Source: Nannocystaceae bacterium
GTDB lineage: Bacteria; Myxococcota_A; Polyangia; Nannocystales; Nannocystaceae
Direction of reading: 5' to 3'
DNA: 20,294 bases
Assembly: GCA_044344875.1 (NCBI GenBank)
Contig: JBIJCC010000154.1
Coordinates: 1 to 20,294 of the forward strand
The stretch's first letter is position 1. Each line of letters starts with the position of its first letter. Below are positions 8,446-19,571 of the stretch, piece by piece. The notes beneath the pieces are model-generated. The model made no database searches. It saw only the letters and a list, made by a program, of their open reading frames with translations, and had not been told where the DNA came from. Both the position numbers and the translations under genes were made by a program.

Positions 8446-9480
8446 CTACAGCTCATGGTCCACGGCGTCGCGGAAGACGCGACGCCGGTGGATCTTCCAG
8501 CTCTCGCGCAGCTCGGCGTAGCGAGGATGCGCGACGCGTCGCATCGCACCGAGCAGGTAGCCGAGCGCGTAGCTGGGATCCTGCCAGCACTGCGCGCCCG
8601 CGCGGAGCGCTGCGATCTCGTCGACCCGCGATAGCGCGATCTCGACGTCCGAGGCATCGGCGTCCTCTGCCATGAGGAACAGGGCGTACATCGCTGCGCG
8701 CGGCTCGCCGTCGCCGAGGATCCGTTGGAGTCGTGGCGTCGCGTCGCTGTCGGACCCGCGCATGCTGCCCTCGCGGACGCGGTCCATGAACGCGAGCGCC
8801 GCTGGCGTATCGGTCGGATCGACGTCGTCCGGGGTGGTCGCGCGCCGGATCCGGAACGCCCCGGTGTCGTCGTGCGGGACGACCACCTCGAACTCCGGAT
8901 CGAGCGCCTCGCGTAGCCGCCGGGCGAAGGCCGCCAGGTCCCCCGACCAGTGGAGGTGCAGATCGCCGACGAGCGCGCCCCCTTGGAACGCGGTGCGGTG
9001 CGACTGCTTGTGCCAAAAGATGATCTCGTAGGCCTTCGAGTCGCCACCGCGGCGATGGATCTCCTTGGCCGCGTCTTCGTACCCGCCGCTCTGGGTCGGA
9101 CCGGCGTTGGCGAGCGCCACGACCTTGCCCTGGTTCATCGCCGCCATCGCGCGTCGCAGCTTGGTGAGATCGGTGATCGCCGAGCCGCGCTGCGCGGACG
9201 CGCGCTCGGGTACGACGGCCGCATCGTCGGCCGCTCGCGCCGGCGCAGGCACCCCGCTGGCCGTGTCGACGCACGCGTAGCCCTTGTTCTGCTTCTCCGC
9301 CGCGAGCTCGTCCGCGAGCTCGCGCGCCGCGGTGGCGCTCGCGCAGCTCTGCGTCTTCGACTGACCGTTCGCGCCGATCCGGCCCCACCGGGTGGTCACC
9401 GCCTTGCCGTCGGCGACCACCTCCCAGAACTTCGACGACTTGCCTTCGCGGAACTCGAGGTAGACGCGCATTGCCATCAT
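8446..9480 (-). CDS. WGR-domain protein (344 aa) with an uncharacterised C-terminal domain
   Basis: The N-terminus MRVYLEFREGKSSKFWEVVADGKAVTTRWGRIGANGQSKTQSCASATAARELADELAAEKQNKGY is a textbook WGR domain. The rest has no recognised motif and is not an obvious PARP catalytic H-G-S/Y/E signature. Confidence 0.75.
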   Translation of the reverse strand: MMAMRVYLEFREGKSSKFWEVVADGKAVTTRWGRIGANGQSKTQSCASATAARELADELAAEKQNKGYACVDTASGVPAPARAADDAAVVPERASAQRGSAITDLTKLRRAMAAMNQGKVVALANAGPTQSGGYEDAAKEIHRRGGDSKAYEIIFWHKQSHRTAFQGGALVGDLHLHWSGDLAAFARRLREALDPEFEVVVPHDDTGAFRIRRATTPDDVDPTDTPAALAFMDRVREGSMRGSDSDATPRLQRILGDGEPRAAMYALFLMAEDADASDVEIALSRVDEIAALRAGAQCWQDPSYALGYLLGAMRRVAHPRYAELRESWKIHRRRVFRDAVDHEL

Positions 9481-9857: not shown

Positions 9858-10475
9858 TTGCCGACCGACCTCGAGCTCCTCCAGCGATGGCGAGCGGGCG
9901 ATGCCGCCTCCGGCAGCGCCCTGTTCGAGCGGCACTTCGACGCGCTGTGCCGGTTCTTCCGCAACAAGCTCGGGGGCGTTGGCGTCGACGATCTGATCCA
10001 GCGCACGTTCCTCGCGCTGGTCGAGCACCGCGAACAGTTCCGCGGGGACTCGAGCTTCCGCACCTACCTGTTCACGGTGGCGCGGCACGAGCTGTACGCC
10101 CACCTCGAGCGCTCGGGCCGCGACGCGGCGCGGTTCGATCCCCTCGTGCACTCGGCCCACGATCACGGCGCATCGCCGACGACCGTGGTCGCGCAGCGCC
10201 GCGAGCAGCGGCTGCTCCTCGAGGCGCTGCGCCGGATCCCGATCGAGCTGCAGCTCGTGCTCGAGCTGTTCTACTGGGAGGACCTCGCGGCGCCCGAGCT
10301 CGGGCGGATCCTCGAGGTCCCCGAGGGCACGGTGCGCACGCGACTGCGAAGGGGACGTCAGCTCCTCGAGCAGGCGCTGCACGAGCTGGGCGATGGTGAC
10401 GCGGCGCTGTCGACCACGCTCGCGGGGCTCGAGGACTGGGCGCGATCGATCCGCGAGCACGCCGGCCGCCCGTGA
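9858..10475 (+). CDS. ECF-type RNA polymerase sigma-70 factor (205 aa)
   Basis: Sigma region 2 (DLIQRTFLALVEHREQFRGDSSFRTYLFTVARHEL) and region 4 (LVLELFYWEDLAAPELGRILEVPEGTVRTRLRRGRQLL). TTG start at 9858 is inferred; no in-frame ATG between the upstream stop and region 2. Confidence 0.85.
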   Translation: MPTDLELLQRWRAGDAASGSALFERHFDALCRFFRNKLGGVGVDDLIQRTFLALVEHREQFRGDSSFRTYLFTVARHELYAHLERSGRDAARFDPLVHSAHDHGASPTTVVAQRREQRLLLEALRRIPIELQLVLELFYWEDLAAPELGRILEVPEGTVRTRLRRGRQLLEQALHELGDGDAALSTTLAGLEDWARSIREHAGRP

Positions 10476-10490
10476 GCCCGATGCGCGCTG

Positions 10491-11078
10491 CTACAGCGCG
10501 GTGCCGACGAACGGCACCGAGAAGCCGCACGGGAACGCGACGCCGAGCGCTCCGGCTGCGAGCGCGCAGTCGGCCCCCTCGCACTCGATGCGGCCGTTCT
10601 GCACGCCGTCGAGCGTGGTCGCGCGGGTGAGCGTGCCCTCGACCGACACCCGGATGTTGCCGACGGCGTCGAGGCCGGCGACCTCGTCGGTCATTCCGGT
10701 GAAGCGCTCGGCGCAGTCGAACGCCCCGTCGCCGAAGGTGCACTCGAACGGCTCGGTCTCGTCGCCGGGGGTCAACGTCAGCGAGTCGGGTCCCGTCAAC
10801 GCGATCTGGAACAGGCCGAAGCCGTTGCTGGGATCGGCCAGGAACGTGCAGTCGTTGGTCGCGCCGGCGGTCTCCTCGTACTGCCACAGTCCCTCGGCCG
10901 GGGTGACGTCCGCGCCCGAGTCGTCGCCGCTCTCGTCCGCGGAATCCGAGCTCGCGCTCGCCGAGGCGCTCGGGTCGTCGGTGCCGGCGCCGTCGTCGTC
11001 GCCTCCGTCCGAGATCACGCAGGCGGGGGTCGAGACGAGGCAGGCGAGCAGGGCGACGCGGGAAAGCACAGGGGTCAT
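10491..11078 (-). CDS. Secreted or lipoprotein-like protein (195 aa) with acidic S/D linker and 8 Cys
   Basis: ATG at 11078 is preceded by GGAGGA (7-nt spacing). Signal-like N-terminus MTPVLSRVALLACLVSTPAC, then D/S/G-rich linker, then Cys-containing domain. The rest of the long minus ORF (to 14105) is a shadow of the kinase gene on the other strand. Confidence 0.65.
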   Translation of the reverse strand: MTPVLSRVALLACLVSTPACVISDGGDDDGAGTDDPSASASASSDSADESGDDSGADVTPAEGLWQYEETAGATNDCTFLADPSNGFGLFQIALTGPDSLTLTPGDETEPFECTFGDGAFDCAERFTGMTDEVAGLDAVGNIRVSVEGTLTRATTLDGVQNGRIECEGADCALAAGALGVAFPCGFSVPFVGTAL

Positions 11079-11303
11079 GTCGGTTCCTCCGCGGCCGGTA
11101 GAGGGCCGAGTTCCGCGGATCGATTGCGGCGCGGGGCCGCTGGGCGTGGCCCGCGTCACAACGCGGCCCCCACGCCCCGCCGCCGCCGAATCCCCCGACC
11201 CGCCGCGCGTCGAGGATCGGCGGTGTCCGCCCTGCGCATCGATGGTTCGAGCGAAGATGGACGCGACGTGGCGGGACCCGACCAACCCACGCGGCCGACC
11301 GCG

Positions 11304-14168
11304 ATGAACAGCCCCCGCGCAGCCGACGTGGACGCCCGCGTGCGCGAGGCGGCGCCCGCCGGTCGTGATCTGCAGGCGGCACGGTGGCACGGCGAGGTCG
11401 CCCTGCGGTTGTTCGGCACCGCACCTCCCGTGACCTCCGTCGGTCGCTACCAGCTCGTCGAACGCAGGGGCGGAGGCGCCAGTGGCGAGGTCTGGGCGGC
11501 GATCGATCCCGAGCTCGATCGCCGCGTCGCGCTGAAGATCCTCCACGCCGAACTCGGCCCCGAGCCCGCCCACGCCGCGATGATCCGCGAGGCGAAGGCG
11601 CTCGCGAAGCTCTCGCACCCGAACGTCGTGCCGGTGTTCGACGCCGGCGTCCACGACGGCCGCGTGTTCATGGCGCTCGAGCTGGTCGAGGGCACGACGA
11701 TGCGGGCGTGGATGGAAGCCAAGCCGCCGTGGCGTGACATCGTCGCGGTCTTCGCCCAGGCCGCGCGTGGCCTGCTCGCCGCCCACGTCGCGGGCATCGT
11801 GCACCGCGACGTCAAGCCCGAGAACATCCTGGTCGGCAACGATGGCCGCGTGCGCGTGTCCGACTTCGGCATCGCGCGGCCGACCGGAACCCACGCCATC
11901 GATGCGTCGGCCGGTACGCTCCAGTCGACCGCGGGCATCGGCACGCCCGCGTACATGGCCCCCGAGCAGTTCCTCGGCGACCCCGTCGCCGCGCGCACCG
12001 ATCAGTTCGGCCTGTGCGTCGCGCTGCACGAGGCGCTGTGGGGCGAGCGGCCGTTCGCGGGGCGCGACCGGACGATGCTCGCCGCGAACGTCATCGCCGG
12101 CCGGCGCCGCGCGCCGCCGACCGAGTCCGACGTCCCCGGGTGGTTGGCCCGCGTCGTGTCGCGGGGCCTGAGCGTCGATCCGGCGCGGCGTTGGCCGGAC
12201 CTCGCCGCGATGCTCCGCGCGCTCGAAGGTCCGCGGCGTCGACGGGGGCCGACCGCGATCGGCGTCGCCGCGATCGGCGTGGCGGCGCTGGCATGGGCAC
12301 CGTGGCAGACCGCGGCCGCGCCCGCGTGCGACGACGGCGCGGCGCGGCTGGCCGCAGCGTGGAACGACGCCGCCGCCGATCGCATCCGCGACGCCTTCGC
12401 CCGCACCGGCACCACCCACGCCGACGAGCGCGCGACGGCGTTGGTCGCCGAGTTCGATCGCTTCGGCGAGGCGTGGCGCTCGGCCCACGACGACGCGTGC
12501 CTCGCCGCCGTCGACGACGGCACACGCATCGCCCGACAGTACTGCCTGCACACGCGGCTGCTCGAGCTGCAGTCGATGGCGACCGCCTTGGGCCAGGCCG
12601 ACGCCGCCGTGGTCGAGCACGCGGCGCGCGGGGGCACGACGCTGCGCGCCCCGGGCGAGTGCCGCTACCTGGCGCCGCCGGCCGTCGCAGCGGCCACCGA
12701 CCCACAGCAGGACCTCGAGCTGCGCGCTGCGATCGCGACCGCGCGGGCGCTCGGCGACGTCGGCCGCATGGACGCCGGGCTCGCGCAGGTGCGAGACGCG
12801 GTCGGGCGCGCCCAGGACCTGGGCAACCGCTCGCTCGAGGCCGAGGCCTTGCTGGTCACCGCCGAGCTGCAGGTGCCGCTGGTCGGGACCCAGCCCGACG
12901 TCGATCCCATGCCCACGCTCCACGCCGCGCTGCTCGCGGCCGAGGCCGCGCACCGACCCGATCTCGTCGCGCTCGTCGTGGTCGCCACGATGGAGTCGGA
13001 GCTGATCCGCGGCGACTACGATCGCGCCGAGCTGCTCGAGCCGCGCGCGCGCGAGGTCGCGACGACGATGGGCGATCCACCGGAGCTGGTCGGGCGCATC
13101 GACCTGGCCGCGGGCGAGATCCTGATCATGGCGCACCAGCACGCCGCGAGCGTCGCGCTGCTCGAGCGCGCCCGCGATCGCTTCGAACGCAGCGGTCCGT
13201 CGAGCCGACGCTGGCTCGCGCAGACGCTCAACCTGCTCGGCGAGACCGAGTTCCGCGCGGGCGCCTACGCGGCCGCGCGGCCACAGTACGAGCGCGCGCT
13301 GGGGATCCTCCGCGAGGATCTCCGCGCGCACCACCTGCTGGTCGCCAACGCCACCGGCAACCTCGCCGAGACCTACTTCGTCGTCGGCGACTTCACCACC
13401 GCGGCGCGCTACTTCGAGGAGGCGCTGGCGATCCGGCGCGAGATGTTCGGCGCCGACTCGGTCTGGGTCCGGCACACGCTGGGGCACCTCGGCGATCTCG
13501 CGTGGGAGCAAGGCGACCCCGAGCGCGCGCTGCAGGCCTACACCACCGCGCTCGCGCAGCCCGAGCCGCCGGTCGGATCCGAGACGCTGCCCAACGTGCT
13601 GCGCGACCTGCAAACCCAGCAGCAACGCTCGTGGATGCACAACGGCGCCGCGCTGGCGTTGCTCGACCTCGGGCGACTCGAGGAGGCCCTCGTCCACGCG
13701 GAGCTCGGCGACGACGCACCGCTGGCGGAGGATTTCCAGCACCCCGATCTCACCGGTCGCATCGATGTGCGTGGCCTGGTCCTGCTCGCGATGGGCCGCA
13801 CCGACGACGCCGGCGCGGCGTTGGATGCCGCGCTCGCGCGGCTCGAGCACGGCTACCCCGACGGCGCGCGCACGGTCGCGTTCGCCTCGATCGGCCTGGG
13901 CCGAGCGCTGCTCGCCGCCGGCCACCGAGACCGCGCCGCGGCGGCGCTGCAGCGCGGCCTGGCGATGTTCACCGCGACGCCCCTGGCCTATCCGCGGATG
14001 CAGGCGGCGGCTCGGTTCGCCCTCGGGCAGGCGTGGGCCGACGATCCGCTCCGGGCCGACCGCGGACGCGAGCAGGTCCGCGCCGCAATCACGCTGCTCG
14101 CCCATGCCGAGGGCACCGCAGCGCGCGAGCGCGACGCGATGCTCGCGTGGTCCAGCGCCGCGCCGTAG
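11304..14168 (+). CDS. Transmembrane Ser/Thr protein kinase with extracytoplasmic 4-Cys + TPR-rich C-terminal region (954 aa)
   Basis: Hanks kinase motifs: GGGASGEV (Gly loop), VALKIL, HRDVKPENILV, DFGIA, AYMAPE. Predicted TM helix GPTAIGVAAIGVAALAWAPW. Then conserved Cys and TPR-like repeats (AYAAARPQYERALGI..., FTTAARYFEEALAIRREMFG...). Start ATG 11304 chosen; an upstream GTG is possible. Confidence 0.88.
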   Translation: MNSPRAADVDARVREAAPAGRDLQAARWHGEVALRLFGTAPPVTSVGRYQLVERRGGGASGEVWAAIDPELDRRVALKILHAELGPEPAHAAMIREAKALAKLSHPNVVPVFDAGVHDGRVFMALELVEGTTMRAWMEAKPPWRDIVAVFAQAARGLLAAHVAGIVHRDVKPENILVGNDGRVRVSDFGIARPTGTHAIDASAGTLQSTAGIGTPAYMAPEQFLGDPVAARTDQFGLCVALHEALWGERPFAGRDRTMLAANVIAGRRRAPPTESDVPGWLARVVSRGLSVDPARRWPDLAAMLRALEGPRRRRGPTAIGVAAIGVAALAWAPWQTAAAPACDDGAARLAAAWNDAAADRIRDAFARTGTTHADERATALVAEFDRFGEAWRSAHDDACLAAVDDGTRIARQYCLHTRLLELQSMATALGQADAAVVEHAARGGTTLRAPGECRYLAPPAVAAATDPQQDLELRAAIATARALGDVGRMDAGLAQVRDAVGRAQDLGNRSLEAEALLVTAELQVPLVGTQPDVDPMPTLHAALLAAEAAHRPDLVALVVVATMESELIRGDYDRAELLEPRAREVATTMGDPPELVGRIDLAAGEILIMAHQHAASVALLERARDRFERSGPSSRRWLAQTLNLLGETEFRAGAYAAARPQYERALGILREDLRAHHLLVANATGNLAETYFVVGDFTTAARYFEEALAIRREMFGADSVWVRHTLGHLGDLAWEQGDPERALQAYTTALAQPEPPVGSETLPNVLRDLQTQQQRSWMHNGAALALLDLGRLEEALVHAELGDDAPLAEDFQHPDLTGRIDVRGLVLLAMGRTDDAGAALDAALARLEHGYPDGARTVAFASIGLGRALLAAGHRDRAAAALQRGLAMFTATPLAYPRMQAAARFALGQAWADDPLRADRGREQVRAAITLLAHAEGTAARERDAMLAWSSAAP

Positions 14169-14181
14169 CGCGCCGTCGAGC

Positions 14182-16356
14182 TCACGCGTCGACGACCGGC
14201 ACCGACTCGACGACGAGCTTGGCCTCGTCGTCGTCGCGCGAAACCAGCATCACCTTGAAGGCGTCGCGATCGGCGTGCAGCTCGTCCCCGACGGCGACCA
14301 GCACGCGCCAGCTCTCGAGCCGCGCGCTGCTCATCACCAACGCCGGCCCGGCGGCGACGTGCTTGCCGGACTTCCCGGCGCACTTGGTGCCCGTGCCCGG
14401 CGCGAACACGGACCCGCACTCGCGGCAGATCTTCCAGGTGCGACGCAGCGCGAGCATGGCCTGCGCACCGCCGGGGAAGCGCGGCTCGGATCCCTGGGGC
14501 ACGCTGACGCGATCGACGACCGCAGCGTCGCGCAGCGCGAAGTCGGGGAACAGACCCGACGGCACATGACGACCGCCCGCCGAGCAGGCGCCGGCGTGGC
14601 CGAACATGCCCGCGCACTTGGTGCAGCGCCAGGTCGAGACGATGCCGGGCACGATGCGCCAGCGCTCCGCGGCGTGATCGTGATCCTCGAGCACGTGGGC
14701 CTCGCCGGTCTTGGCGCACCGCTGCGAGCGGGTGTACCCGACGATGCCGCACTTGCGACACGTCGACCACCCCTGGTGCGTGCTCGCACCGCGACGCACG
14801 ACGTCGAGGGTGAAGAACGGGCTGCGACGGACCTCGTGGGTGCCACCGGCGGCGCACGGCGCCGTGGCGCGCTGCGGATCGATGAGCGTGCGGCAGCGAC
14901 TGCACGCGCGGAATCCCGTGCCGGTCTCGCTGGTGCGCAGCGCGTAGGCCGTGGTCATGTCGCTGCGGTGCTCGCCGCCGGCGGCGCACGCACTGCCCTC
15001 GCCGGAGCCCGCGTGCCACAGACCGTTGCAGCGGAAGCATCGACGCCAACCCGGCACCGCGCGGACGTAGCCGTTGTCGAACGGCACGGCGAGATCGGTG
15101 CTCTCGAATTCATGCACGCCACCGGCGCGGCAACCGAGCTCGGCGGTGTCGACCGCGACCCCGCAGGCCGTGCACGCGCGAAAACCATCGACGCCGCGCG
15201 AGCCTCGGCCGAGCAGGCGCCGCAGCTGCAAGCGCTCGTCGGCGGGCAGGTGCGACTCGATGCCTCGACCGCTGCGCATCTCGACGGTGTACACGCCGCC
15301 GGGCGCGTCGATCTGCAGGAGCACCGGCTCGGGCGCGGCGGCATCGGCCAGGGCGATCGTCGCCTCGAAGCGGCGGCCGGGCTTCCACGTCACGGTCGTC
15401 ACCCGCTCGGGCGGCAGCCATCCGGCGAGCCACGACGCGGCGAGCGGCGGCACCGGCCCGCGCTCGGCGAACCGCGGGTGCGGTGCGGGCCGGAACCCGC
15501 GCCCGGTCGCGTCGAGATCGTCGTGGACCCCGAGCGCCGCGGCCACCGCCCGCGTGCCCCAGCTCGAGGTCGGGAAGGACTCCTGCGCCACGGCCAGCGG
15601 TCGATCGAGATCGAGGTTGTGCGGCACCGGCACGCCCTCGGTGCTCTCGAGGCAGCCACGATCGGCGAGCTCGACGGAGATCACGCGCTGGCAATCGCGA
15701 CACTCGGCCCACTGCACGTCGCCGTCGGCGGCCCGCGCCAGACTGAAGCGATCGCCGCCGGTGTGACCGGTCGGGTTCTTCGGGCAGTGGCCGCGGGAGT
15801 TGCCGTCGAAGGCCCAGATCGCGTGGCACGACGAGCAGTTCTGGTAGTGGATCTCGCCCTCGGTCGCGCGCGCGAGCTCGAAGGTGCCGCGATCGTCGAA
15901 CGCGTGTCCGCCCTCGGGGCTCCCCCAGCAGTGCGACAGCGCGGCGTTGGGGGCGAGGTGCAGCGCGCCGCAGTACCGGCAGCGTCGCAACCCGCCCTGG
16001 CCGCCATGGGTGATCCAGTCGGCGACGACGTCGCCTTCGATCGCGCCGGTCCGAGCGAGCCGAGCGTTGACGATCGCGACCAGGCCACCGGCGATCGGCT
16101 CGGCGGTCAGCGTGCGCGCGTGGGCGGCCAGCTCCGGCAGCTCGAGGCCCGCGAGTTCCTCCTGCAGCAGCGGGCTCTCGAGCCAACCGTGCCACTCGAA
16201 CTCGAGCGTCAGCGCGCCCTGGCCGACCTGCTCGAGGTCGGCGCGGATGCCCTGCAGCCACGCCCGCACCGCCGCCTCCTCGGCGACGCCGGCGACGTCC
16301 TTCGCCCGCACGCCGAGCACCACGAACGCGACCCGACCTCGAACCCGTGCGCGCAT
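14182..16356 (-). CDS. Tandem Cys3-His repeat protein (724 aa): about 9 repeats of W-x1-2-C-x2-C-x10-14-C-x2-(G/A)-G-x-H, putative zinc-ribbon-like array; no signal peptide
   Basis: Repeats read directly: GLRRCRYCGALHL...CWGSPEGGH; YQNCSSCHAIW...CPKNPTGH; GFRACTACGVAV...CRAGGVH; GWRRCFRCNGLW...CAAGGEH; GFRACSRCRTLI...CAAGGTH; GWSTCRKCGIVG...CAKTGEAH; TWRCTKCAGMFG...CSAGGRH; TWKICRECGSVF...CAGKSGKH. Continuous 724-codon ORF, convergent with kinase 1 and divergent from kinase 2. Confidence 0.75.
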   Translation of the reverse strand: MRARVRGRVAFVVLGVRAKDVAGVAEEAAVRAWLQGIRADLEQVGQGALTLEFEWHGWLESPLLQEELAGLELPELAAHARTLTAEPIAGGLVAIVNARLARTGAIEGDVVADWITHGGQGGLRRCRYCGALHLAPNAALSHCWGSPEGGHAFDDRGTFELARATEGEIHYQNCSSCHAIWAFDGNSRGHCPKNPTGHTGGDRFSLARAADGDVQWAECRDCQRVISVELADRGCLESTEGVPVPHNLDLDRPLAVAQESFPTSSWGTRAVAAALGVHDDLDATGRGFRPAPHPRFAERGPVPPLAASWLAGWLPPERVTTVTWKPGRRFEATIALADAAAPEPVLLQIDAPGGVYTVEMRSGRGIESHLPADERLQLRRLLGRGSRGVDGFRACTACGVAVDTAELGCRAGGVHEFESTDLAVPFDNGYVRAVPGWRRCFRCNGLWHAGSGEGSACAAGGEHRSDMTTAYALRTSETGTGFRACSRCRTLIDPQRATAPCAAGGTHEVRRSPFFTLDVVRRGASTHQGWSTCRKCGIVGYTRSQRCAKTGEAHVLEDHDHAAERWRIVPGIVSTWRCTKCAGMFGHAGACSAGGRHVPSGLFPDFALRDAAVVDRVSVPQGSEPRFPGGAQAMLALRRTWKICRECGSVFAPGTGTKCAGKSGKHVAAGPALVMSSARLESWRVLVAVGDELHADRDAFKVMLVSRDDDEAKLVVESVPVVDA

Positions 16357-16455
16357 GCAGTGCGCGCGGGTCTACACGGGGGCCGCGCGCATGGCAAGCC
16401 GTCGCGGCGCCGCGCGGAGTCGACGACGCCCGAGCGCCGCGGTAGCGTCGGTTCC

Positions 16456-19400
16456 GTGGACGCGTGCCCCGATCCGTCGGCGCTCGAGGCCTTCGGGCAG
16501 GGCTCGCTCGGCGCCGCGGCCCGCGAGGCGCTCGAGGTCCACCTCGATCGGTGCAGCGCGTGCGCGACGCTGCTCGCCCAGCTCACCCAGATCTACGGCT
16601 CGGCCCTTTCGCCGGCCTCGCGCGCGGACGAACGACCCACGCTCGGCGACGCGCCGTCCGCCAGCGGCAGCGCGGAGCTGCGCGCCGACGCGACCGGGAT
16701 CCGCGTCGGCCGCTACGAGCTCGGCCGGCTGCTCGGCGCCGGTGGCATGGGCATGGTCTACGAGGCCGCCGATCCCGAGCTGCACCGTCGCATCGCGATC
16801 AAGCTGTTGCACCCGGGCGTCAGCGGCGACGTCGAGGCCACGCGCAATCGCATGCTGCGCGAGGCCCGGGCCATGGCCCAGCTCGCGCACCCGAACGTCG
16901 TCGCCGTGCACGACGTCGGCCGCATCGGCGAGCAGGTGTTCGTCGCGATGGAGCTCGTCCCCGGCACGACACTCACCAAGTGGTTGGCGTCGACGCGACG
17001 CACGCGGGCGGAGATCCTCGCGACGTTCGTGCAGGCCGGTCGCGGGCTCGAGGCCGCGCACGCGGTGGGCCTGGTGCACCGCGACTTCAAGCCGGACAAC
17101 GTGCTCATCGGCCTCGACGGGCGCGCACGCGTGACCGACTTCGGCCTGGCGCGACCGGCACTGTCGTGGCCCGAGGGCACCCACGACACCGCGGCGGTCG
17201 CCGCCGCGGCCGCGGGCCTCGGCGTCACCTCGCACCTGAGCACCGCGCACGGGGCGATCGTCGGCACGCCGGCGTACATGGCCCCCGAGCAGTGGCGCGG
17301 CGTCGCGGCCGACGCCCGCAGCGATCAGTTCTCGTTCTGCGTCGCGCTGTACGAGGCGTGCTTCGGCGCGCGGCCGTTCGGCGGCGACGGCTTCTACGAG
17401 CTCGCCGAGCAGGTGCTGCGCGGCCGCTTGGTGGCCCCGCCGCGCAGCGCCCCGGCCTGGCTGCGCGCGGCGTTGATGCGCGGGCTGCAGGTCGATCCCG
17501 ACGCGCGTCACCCGTCGATGTCGGTGCTGCTGCACGCGCTCGAGCGCGACCGCACCCGCGTACGTCGGATCGCGGGCGTCGTCGGGGCGATGGGCCTCAG
17601 CGTCGCCGCGACCGTCGGCGTGCTGGCATGGACCGCCGGCGCGACGTCGGCCGCGCCACCGTCCGTCGATCTGCCTGCGCCCGAGATCGCGACGACCGAG
17701 GTCCCGGCGGCCGCGCCACCGCGGCCCGCACCACCACCGATCGACCCGCAAGTGACCGCGTGCCTCGGACGGACGCCGGACGCGGCGGGGCGATGGAAGG
17801 ACGCGCGGCGCAGCGAACTCGAGGCTCGTGTGCGCACGATGGACGACGGCGACGCGATCGCGACCCGCAGCTTGCGGGTCCTCGACGCCTGGGCGGCGCG
17901 ATGGACCGAGCTGAGCGCGACCGCGTGCGCGCCAGTGGCCGGCGCCGCGCACGTCGACGCGCAGCGCCGCTGCCTGGCATCGGCGCTGCCGCGGTTCGAC
18001 GCGCTGATCCAGCACGCGCTCGAGCTGCCGACGTTCCAGGTCGACGACTCCCTCGCCGCGGCGGCGCTGCGCCTGCCCGATCTCGACGCGTGCAGCGACG
18101 TCGCCTGGCTCGCCGTCGCGCCGGGGCCGATCGACGCGGCCAAGCTCGGGGAGGCCGCGCTCGTCGAGGGCGAGCTCGCGAGCGCCGAGGCGCTGGTCCA
18201 CCTCGATCAGCTGACGAGCGCGCCCGAGGCCGTCGATCGGGTGCTGACGCGCGCGTTGGCCCTCGGTCACGCGCCGCTCATCGCTGCGGCGCAGCTCGCC
18301 CTCGGCGTCGCGCAGCTCGAGAAGTACGAGACCGATGCCGCCATCGAGGCGCTGTCGGCCGCCGCGACCACCGCCCAGGGCGGCGTCGACGATCGCGTGT
18401 TCGCCCGCGCGAGCCTGCTGCTCATCGAGCAGACCGCGGGCCCGCAGCAGCGACCGGCCGATGCGCTGCGGTGGGAGCGATTGCTCGCACCGCTGGCGTC
18501 ACGCCTCGGCGATCCGTGGCTCGACGGCGCGCTGGCGTTCGCGAGCGCGTCGGCGCTGCACGGCCGCGCCGAGTACCGCCCGGCCCTCGCGCAGTACGAC
18601 GTGGCGATCCGCGAGCTCGGCGGCGCGCTCGGGCCGAATCACCCCGAGGTCGCGCGCGCACGGCTCGGCGCCGCGGCGACGCACCTCGCTCTGGGCGAGA
18701 CCGATCGCGCGACCGAGCTGGCCGGCGCCGCCGATGCGGCGCCGCCGATGCGGCGCTGCTCGAGGCGGTCGGCGGCGGCGATCTCCACTACGCAGCGGCG
18801 CGGGCCATGGTCGCGCGGGCGGCCCTCGAGCGCGGCGATCTCGACGCCGCGGGCAAGGCCGCGGACGCAGCCGCGCACATCCCGTTGTTCTCGCAGTCGC
18901 TGCGCCACGATTTCGATCACGGCACCTACCTCGGCCTGGTCGGCGACGTCGCGGCCGCACGCGGCGACGCGGCCGCGGCCCTGGCGAGCTACGAGAAGGC
19001 GAAGATCTATCTCTACGTCGACGCGCCCAAGGCGACCCCGCTGCTCTGGGAGGCCCGCCTGCGCATCGACACCGGCACCGTCCGCGAGGGACTCGGGCGC
19101 CTCGACGAGGCCCTCGCGATCCTCGACGCGTCCCTCGAGCCCGACGACGCGCGCCGCATCGATCCGCTGATCGCGATCGGCCGCGCGCAACGTCGCGCGA
19201 AGAAGATCGCTGCCGCACGGGCGACCCTCGAGCGGGCGGTCGCGATCGCCGAGGCGAGCTACGGCTTCTCGGCGCGCACCTCCCTCCTCCAGCACGAGCT
19301 GGCCGCGCTCGAGGCCGAGGCCGGCAACGACGCCCGCGCCCTGCAGCTCTACGACGACGCCCACGTCGCCCTCGGCAGCGCGTTCGAGCTGCACCACCCG

Positions 19401-19571
19401 CGGGTGGTCGCGACGTTGCTCGCGCGCGCCGACCTCGCCTACGGCCTCGGTCAGCGCGAGTACGCCGGTCGGTTGTACGGATCGATCGCGGACGAGCTCA
19501 TGCAACAGCGCGGGCCCAAGGACGCATCGACGATGCGCGCCCGGGCCCGCCGTGGGCCGGACGACGGCTGA
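16456..19571 (+). pseudogene. Transmembrane Ser/Thr protein kinase paralog with N-terminal ZAS-type (H-x3-C-x2-C) motif and TPR-rich C-terminus; reading frame broken by a 14-bp tandem duplication at 18727-18754
   Basis: N-terminus VDACPDPSALEAFGQGSLGAAAREALEVHLDRCSACATLL. Kinase motifs GAGGMGMVYEA, IAIKLL, HRDFKPDNVLI, DFGLA, AYMAPE. TM helix IAGVVGAMGLSVAATVGVLAW. Frame 1 is protein-like to ...ELAGAADAA (about 18750). Frame 0 takes over at ADAALLEAVGGGDLHY... and runs to the stop at 19571. Removing one copy of gccgccgatgcggc restores a single ORF of about 1034 aa. GTG start at 16456 inferred; GTG at 16360 is an alternative. Confidence 0.8.
18727..18754. repeat. Perfect 14-bp tandem duplication (gccgccgatgcggc x2) inside the kinase gene
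   Basis: Direct reading. 14 is not a multiple of 3, and the switch in protein-like frame occurs exactly here. Confidence 0.9.

Follow-up and report, generated by a model that had tools for sequence, protein, structure and literature searches.

What does a 724-amino-acid protein with nine Cys3-His units do between two membrane kinases? The gene lies on contig JBIJCC010000154.1 of a Nannocystaceae bacterium (assembly GCA_044344875.1), and we analyzed that stretch of 20,294 nucleotides, which we will call the window. An initial annotation, made from the DNA alone, had described the gene product as a plain array of novel repeats. Instead, alignments and column mapping identify the scaffold as a metzincin-type peptidase domain that lacks the catalytic motif. 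The repeats are inserted in this domain or appended to it, and they belong to a very large bacterial family that has no name in the databases we searched.

The open reading frame starts with ATG and ends with a stop codon at 14182-14184 on the minus strand (see Table 1 for the parts of the protein). Using a word-indexed search, we found 10 full-length orthologs (50-94% identity), all of them metagenomic. The gene is present in three metagenome-assembled genomes (MAGs) from GTDB, one of which is labelled Nannocystales and two only "Deltaproteobacteria bacterium"; based on these three labels, we take the ortholog clade to be Nannocystales. Between the window gene and its 94%-identical ortholog (locus L006), the ratio of nonsynonymous to synonymous substitution rates (dN/dS) is 0.12. 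Together with the invariance of 27 cysteines and 9 histidines (see below), this shows that the gene is real and is under purifying selection despite the loss of catalysis. The N-terminus, MRARVRGRVAFVV, is kept in the orthologs and in distant relatives, and in the model it forms the opening strand of the core beta-sheet (residues 7-17, with a predicted local distance difference test score, or pLDDT, of ~92); it is thus not a signal peptide. A cytoplasmic protein of 724 residues, as originally described, is therefore correct. (The alignments behind our structure models were shallow, with 16 sequences.)

In direct scans of Pfam and NCBIfam, the window protein has no above-threshold match, and neither it nor its relatives match a defense system in PADLOC. 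Its homology to metzincins was established indirectly, via its relatives. Five of these (P0011 to P0015) align with the window protein at full length (21-30% identity, E = 5e-37 to 4e-15) and have the same layout: an N-terminal alpha/beta segment, three repeats, a helix with the HExxHxxGxxH motif, the C-terminal half of the peptidase domain with a beta domain, six or more repeats, and a small beta domain. The last of these also ends the active relatives P0011 and P0012. Two of the five, P0014 and P0015 (E = 1.6e-23 and 4e-15 against the window protein), match Peptidase_M11 with 29.7 and 25.6 bits, where the gathering cutoff is 21. P0011 and P0015 have sub-threshold matches to the M6-domain model from NCBIfam, and several relatives have below-threshold matches to reprolysin-type models from Pfam. 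The first triplet of repeats is inserted at the same point in P0011-P0015 and in P0020-P0035, while the relative P0018 lacks the insertion. The matches show, at the level of sequence, that the scaffold is homologous to M11/M6-type metzincins. The structure models predict that it also keeps their fold, with the mixed beta-sheet and active-site helix of clan MA(M). (Our comparison of scaffolds also listed ADAM17, atrolysin C, CpaA, archaemetzincin, and fragilysin.) The window protein thus has homology and a predicted fold in common with M11 peptidases such as gametolysin and OgpA of Akkermansia, and with M6 peptidases such as immune inhibitor A. Unlike them, it lacks HExxHxxGxxH, the Met-turn, a signal peptide, and a Pfam match of its own, and it has three Cys3-His units before the active-site helix and six more appended.

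An exhaustive profile search (described below) showed that nearly all full-length relatives keep HExxHxxGxxH at around residue 270-300. In the window protein, these positions read R269-A270-x-x-A273-x-x-G276-x-x-D279. In the column mapping (alignment A3), the first His corresponds to R269, the Glu to A270, the second His to A273, the Gly to G276, and the third His to D279. Across the orthologs, the first His is replaced by R, W, A, T, or V; the Glu by an invariant Ala; the second His by A, E, S, or R; and the third by D, G, E, R, or P. HExxH is absent from the window protein and from all 10 orthologs, anywhere in the sequence. Where active relatives have the D-[VI]-M of the Met-turn, there is a gap of 22 columns; residues 288-302 of the window protein were modelled with pLDDT below 50. 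Judging from these alignments, this M11/M6-like homolog is a cytoplasmic pseudo-peptidase, since no member of the clade retains any of the three zinc-binding histidines, the catalytic Glu, or the Met-turn. Could it still be a hydrolase with a non-canonical active site? The fold and some elements that line the cleft are retained (the "AIVN" strand, D109, and G276), but the four catalytic positions all hold non-ligand residues, which differ from ortholog to ortholog, and the Met-turn has been deleted. We find this barely credible.

The initial annotation counted about nine Cys3-His copies, and the 27 cysteines of the protein do fall into exactly nine units of three, each with a C-x2-C, a third Cys, and then a His. 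It also asked if the Cys and His positions are conserved in homologs. All 27 cysteines and all 9 histidines are invariant in the 11 sequences (the window protein and its 10 orthologs), as are many other motifs, and most of them are also retained in the relatives with 21-30% identity. The spacing is less regular than was claimed. The gap between the third Cys and the His is x5 in just four units (R4, R5, R6, and R8, which have C-x2-G-G-x-H), x6 in R2, R7, and R9, x7 in R1, and x10 in R3. Similarly, the Trp that was reported ahead of C-x2-C is present in five of the nine units, but three have Phe or Tyr and one has Leu. Nor do the units form a single tandem array: they are arranged as 3 + 3 + 3, with one triplet inside the peptidase-like domain and two after it.

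In the structure models, DSSP assigns strands to both sides of each C-x2-C. When the triplet at residues 386-524 was modelled by itself, it formed one compact body (pLDDT 76.7; predicted TM-score, or pTM, of 0.74). Similarity between repeats is only slightly higher at an offset of three units (2.22) than at offsets of one (2.08) or two (2.03), so our claim that the triplet is the basic module rests mainly on this compact model, on the sizes of blocks of repeats across the family, and on stand-alone triplets. Given the triplets and a Q-x-x-W motif, we also considered a beta-trefoil (ricin-B-like) lectin module, but the three-fold pseudo-symmetric fold of 12 strands was not found.

Among the relatives, the canonical unit is Q-x-x-W-[RK]-W-C-x-K-C-x-x-L-x-F-x-G-x(4)-G-x-C-P-A-G-G-x-H-D-x-x-G-S-x-x-Y-x-L. 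To see how widespread it is, we used a profile of the core and the repeats (alignment A2) in an exhaustive hidden Markov model (HMM) search of 1.84 billion cluster representatives (50% identity). This gave 6,728 cluster representatives at E <= 1e-3, 3,768 at E <= 1e-10, and 657 at E <= 1e-30; a second word-indexed search with A2 found just two more proteins. Blocks of 3, 6, 9, or 12 consecutive units occurred in 84, 71, 13, and 2 cases, and blocks of 4, 5, 7, or 8 in 8, 18, 1, and 1. Among stand-alone proteins of at least 140 amino acids, 47/57 have exactly three units. By BLASTP and HMM comparison, the 3 + 6 units of the window protein share the family's profile similarity, ligand pattern, period of ~45-50 amino acids, and grouping in multiples of three. 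This shows that the nine units belong to a large unnamed family whose units come in multiples of three and in stand-alone triplets. The idea that the repeat is peculiar to this protein can be set aside.

Compared to canonical members (WRWCxKC...CPAGGxH), the units of the window clade have the same ligands, period, and triplet grouping, but they are much more divergent: C-x2-G-G-x-H is kept in only 4/9, and the Trp has become Phe, Tyr, or Leu in some. They also accompany an inactivated enzyme domain rather than an active one. The domains to which the repeat is fused in 46 relatives lacking HExxH include DUF4185, Peptidase_M23, an ALO/FAD oxidase, tyrosinase, pro-kumamolisin, a delta-endotoxin N domain, Laminin_G_3, and LGFP. 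A plasmid gene from Spirosoma that is annotated as "matrixin family metalloprotease" has the repeat at its N-terminus, and there are matches on plasmids from Paraburkholderia and Bacillus as well; other named sources are Nostoc and the Nannocystales MAGs. Just 12/164 members have an N-terminus that resembles a signal peptide. Two stand-alone triplets from Nostoc (P0167 and P0169) have twin-arginine (Tat) signals (TRRDFL), so in some lineages the repeat module is exported folded. Tat export typically handles proteins that fold and load their cofactors beforehand.

We found no named family for the repeat in a 2025 copy of Pfam-A, precomputed Pfam (to PF27xxx), NCBIfam 2026, or the PDB (by sequence or by fold); InterPro, CDD, ECOD, and the AlphaFold database were outside the search. 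Precomputed Pfam has no assignment for 80 repeat-only proteins, including Nostoc entries from NCBI and UniRef. Searching the PDB by sequence, with the ortholog profile or with a canonical triplet, gave a chance-level match to a BED zinc finger (E = 0.17) or none. The searchable literature yielded nothing that describes the repeat, and the original impression that it belongs to no recognized family still holds. PF27711, which is precomputed on P0019, was considered as a candidate, but because the repeat-only proteins have no precomputed Pfam, it most likely covers the GDPD/PLD-like C-terminal part of P0019. The repeat thus appears to be an unannotated domain family of considerable size, and defining it, along with the structure and the ligand of a triplet, would annotate thousands of proteins, including fusions with peptidases, tyrosinases, oxidases, and Cry-toxin-like proteins.

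A resemblance to RanBP2-type fingers or other zinc ribbons had been proposed. This is borne out at the level of the motif, but zf-RanBP itself gave no match. Against zinc-ribbon and RanBP2 models, the window protein has only sub-threshold matches (zf-ChsH2 with 13.4 bits and DUF7837 with 14.9 bits) and none in NCBIfam. The repeats of its relatives have weak, sub-threshold similarity to Rpr2, Zn_Ribbon_1, DZR, zf_VAL1_N, and SBP, and one relative was automatically annotated by the Joint Genome Institute (JGI) as "LSD1 subclass zinc finger." Like zinc ribbons and knuckles (RanBP2-type, LSD1-type, Rpr2, and DZR), the repeat has an aromatic-x-C-x2-C knuckle in a beta-hairpin and a second pair of ligands 10-14 residues on, for four conserved ligands per ~25-residue unit. 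In contrast to them, the second pair is C-x5-H (C-P-A-G-G-x-H) instead of C-x2-C, which makes the ligands Cys3His and not Cys4; the whole unit spans ~45-50 amino acids with an extra strand; and the repeat comes in obligate triplets, with no model at threshold and no structural match.

We infer that each unit holds one structural Zn(II) via its Cys3His ligands, with a hairpin like that of a zinc knuckle or ribbon at C-x2-C, and that three units pack into each module. This is suggested by the odd number of cysteines (three) in each unit along with one invariant His; by the family being mostly free of signal peptides, with Tat signals on several exported members; and by the weak matches to zinc-ribbon models.

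If the units bind zinc, are they fingers for binding DNA or RNA, so that the protein would be a nucleic-acid-binding regulator? Besides the zinc-ribbon resemblance, including the weak matches among the relatives, the second and third triplets are basic (isoelectric points, or pI, of 8.2 and 9.5). But the first triplet is acidic (pI 5.9), and the near-neutral pI of the whole protein (7.1) lends no support. Also, the family's partners are peptidases, oxidases, tyrosinase, a toxin pore domain, and lectin-like domains rather than nucleic-acid enzymes, and the Nostoc members are exported via Tat. We consider nucleic-acid binding to be very unlikely.

As originally reported, the convergent gap to the stop codon of kinase 1 is 13 bp (14169-14181), and the divergent region before the start of kinase 2 is about 100 bp (99 bp by our count). 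The two kinases were called paralogs, and they are 46% identical, but only across the kinase domain and the transmembrane segment. Using tblastn, we found an ortholog of kinase 2 divergently adjoining the repeat gene in five of six distinct loci (the window, L006, L001/L008, L003/L004, and L002), across which the repeat protein ranges from 50 to 94% identity. An ortholog of kinase 1 is convergent in four of the six. In L002, kinase 1 has been removed and other genes inserted, and in L003, the upstream context has changed; in both, the pair of kinase 2 and the repeat gene is retained. The active relatives have variable neighborhoods, with no kinase neighbors and no conserved partner gene; the link to kinases is peculiar to the dead clade.

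Several observations weigh against a functional link. In L007, the ortholog of kinase 2 is not adjacent; a different Pkinase-TPR gene lies two genes upstream. The wider neighborhood is also syntenic, with genes for an extracytoplasmic function (ECF) sigma factor and for a major vault protein (MVP)-like protein conserved nearby. Part of the kinase adjacency may thus be due to gene order that related Nannocystales genomes share in general, and adjacency by itself is only moderate evidence for functional coupling. Myxococcota carry very many Ser/Thr kinases. Finally, the repeat gene is intact in the window while kinase 2 is split. Relative to the 94%-related L006, where kinase 2 is a single continuous frame, the window has an exact tandem duplication of 14 bp (cggcgccgccgatg x2, at 18723-18750 on the plus strand), which puts the rest of kinase 2 in frame 3 instead of frame 1 and leaves the C-terminal TPR part of ~270 amino acids out of frame. 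The duplication could be a genuine mutation, or it could have arisen in the assembly. The kinase association that was first proposed therefore gains some support from the conserved adjacency of kinase 2 and loses some because kinase 2 is frameshifted in the window.

One could argue instead that the kinases are adjacent simply because the gene order was inherited, and that this has no bearing on function. The pseudo-enzyme might then act on its own family, for example by regulating or inhibiting active M11-like peptidases that bear the repeat or by serving as their decoy, or it might be the domesticated remnant of a conflict effector. The conserved ECF sigma and MVP-like genes fit with this, as do L007 and the variable contexts of the active relatives, some of which are defense-like or mobile (with TIR, NACHT, STAND, or resolvase genes). 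Also, pseudo-enzymes often regulate their active paralogs, according to the review PMC11266112. But the pair of kinase 2 and the repeat gene has outlasted the rearrangement in L002 and the upstream change in L003, and neither the window nor the related loci show an active paralog. We think that this explanation is rather unlikely.

We prefer the reading that the protein is a non-catalytic, zinc-stabilized, cytoplasmic pseudo-peptidase, which acts by binding or as an adaptor and is tied to Ser/Thr kinase signaling. This function, which we infer, seems somewhat more likely than not. The Cys3-His triplets would be recognition or binding modules, which in active relatives would bring targets to the catalytic cleft. 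For the Nannocystales clade, where catalysis has been lost, binding would be the protein's only mode of action, whether it serves as adaptor, scaffold, decoy, or substrate. Kinase 2 is predicted to have a cytoplasmic kinase domain, one transmembrane segment, and an outward TPR domain. The fact that divergent pairing with kinase 2 is conserved, and that kinase 1 is often a neighbor too, suggests that the protein may be phosphorylated by, or may regulate, the cytoplasmic kinase domains of this unit.

A retained fold without catalysis has precedents in the dead ADAMs (ADAM22, ADAM23, and ADAM11) and in other pseudo-peptidases, and we propose the same logic here. According to PMC11266112, dead ADAMs use the retained fold in protein-protein interactions that are modulated by phosphorylation. 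ADAMs are eukaryotic, extracellular, membrane-anchored, and disulfide-rich, whereas the window protein is bacterial and cytoplasmic, with modules that presumably bind zinc, and its clade lost catalysis independently. To our knowledge, bacterial pseudo-peptidases have rarely been described. What is new here is a bacterial pseudo-metzincin with an unannotated triplet module that probably binds zinc. The active relatives and the dead clade form a clean natural pair: they share an architecture, and the dead clade has a conserved kinase neighbor. This makes the role of a dead protease in a bacterial kinase pathway directly testable.

A more far-reaching proposal is that the triplet is an undescribed and very widespread zinc-dependent module, with a fold that is new to the PDB, which serves as a general means of target recognition for peptidases, oxidases, and toxins that are cytoplasmic or exported via Tat, and that the dead metzincin of Nannocystales, with three such modules, came to act as the adaptor or substrate of a unit formed by a membrane Ser/Thr kinase and an ECF sigma factor. 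We offer this tentatively, as a possibility that falls well short of probable. If true, the kinase-linked dead metzincin would be a bacterial counterpart of the dead-ADAM receptors.

Table 1. The repeat gene, its parts, and the flanking elements in the window
Feature	Residues	Position	Strand	Evidence or remark
Whole gene: cytoplasmic pseudo-metzincin with nine Cys3-His units	724 aa	14182..16356	(-)	Open reading frame; orthologs at 50-94% identity; dN/dS
N-terminal half of metzincin-like catalytic-domain fold	1-118	16003..16356	(-)	Strand-helix-strand core, conserved "AIVN" strand, D109
Repeat triplet 1 (R1-R3)	119-255	15592..16002	(-)	Inserted within the peptidase-like domain, directly ahead of the active-site helix
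C-terminal half of peptidase-like domain and beta domain	256-388	15193..15591	(-)	
Degenerate active-site helix, SSWGTRAVAAALGVHDD	264-280	15517..15567	(-)	Column mapping in alignment A3; helix at 264-275 in model
Repeat triplet 2 (R4-R6)	389-524	14785..15192	(-)	Units nearest to canonical C-x2-C...C-A-G-G-x-H
Repeat triplet 3 (R7-R9)	525-672	14341..14784	(-)	Long insert between R8 and R9
Small C-terminal all-beta domain	673-724	14185..14340	(-)	Strands at 668-718 in model, pLDDT ~90
Units R1-R9	126-151, 174-198, 219-246, 395-415, 440-463, 485-507, 533-554, 578-597, 644-666			
Candidate promoter, CTTGCC-N17-TAGACC		16373..16398	(-)	17-42 nt upstream of the ATG; conserved in five orthologous intergenic regions
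Kinase 1: Pkinase, single transmembrane segment, TPR		11124..14168	(+)	Convergent; neighbor in 4/6 distinct loci
Kinase 2: Pkinase, single transmembrane segment, TPR		16456..19571	(+)	Divergent; GTG start at 16456; conserved neighbor; in two frames here

Between the repeat gene and kinase 2, the conserved element CTTGCC-N17-TAGACC is a candidate promoter for the repeat gene, and if so, the leader of the mRNA would be very short. Scans of 14100-16600 for consensus sigma-70 promoters and for terminators found nothing.

Near its N-terminus, kinase 2 contains an H-x3-C-x2-C motif (HLDRCSAC, amino acids 29-36, at 16540-16563 on the plus strand), preceded by CPDPSALEAF, which resembles the motif of zinc-binding anti-sigma (ZAS) factors. 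Kinase 2 has no match to zf-HC2 from Pfam. Upstream of kinase 1, at 9858-10475 (plus strand), is the ECF-type sigma factor gene (Sigma70_r2, r4_2, and Sigma70_ECF). Since ECF sigma genes are also found near the orthologous clusters in L001 and L002, there is possibly a module of kinase and ECF sigma factor.

These features bear on another explanation for the nine Cys3-His sites, which is that they form a redox or zinc sensor, or a zinc buffer, in which oxidation or the loss of zinc alters the conformation and signals to the kinase and ECF sigma system. A sensor would be consistent with the nine Cys3His clusters, all of them invariant and in a cytoplasmic protein, with the ZAS-like motif in kinase 2, and with the nearby ECF sigma gene. 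However, the repeat occurs in fusions with a wide range of unrelated enzymes and toxins, and some species export it via Tat, which better fits a structural or binding module, and the lack of a zf-HC2 match in kinase 2 is a further point against it. We see the sensor as distinctly improbable.

The MVP-like gene in the window (4822-7320, minus strand) encodes an 832-amino-acid protein with MVP_shoulder and Vault_3 domains, and its counterparts in L001 and L002 have 836 amino acids. Divergent from kinase 1, at ~10491-11063 (minus strand), we noticed an open reading frame of ~190 amino acids, within a longer spurious one, that starts with MTPVLSRVALLACLVSTPAC (similar to a lipoprotein signal) and continues with an acidic linker rich in Ser and Asp; L001 has a gene of 229 amino acids at the equivalent position. 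A protein with WGR and DUF6891 domains is encoded at 8446-9480 (minus strand) and has a weak PADLOC match to WGR_XIII; the neighborhoods in L001 and L002 have no such gene.

The region at ~2000-5000 is an island of lower GC content (0.57-0.60, versus 0.68-0.77 elsewhere). The open reading frames at 4293-4919 and 2098-4296 (both minus strand) encode an HD-CE and HATPase_c protein whose HD-CE domain is split between these two adjacent frames, which differ in phase (profile positions 1-120 and 129-262). This is an apparent second frameshift in the window, possibly in foreign or defense-like DNA.

Elsewhere in the repeat family, at L005 (the locus of P0015) and on the contig with P0013, active repeat-bearing M11-like peptidases adjoin genes for a serine recombinase, a relaxase, and a CHAP protein, with TIR, NACHT, HEAT, and STAND-WD40 genes near them. 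These neighbors suggest that some members of the family ride on mobile or conflict islands.

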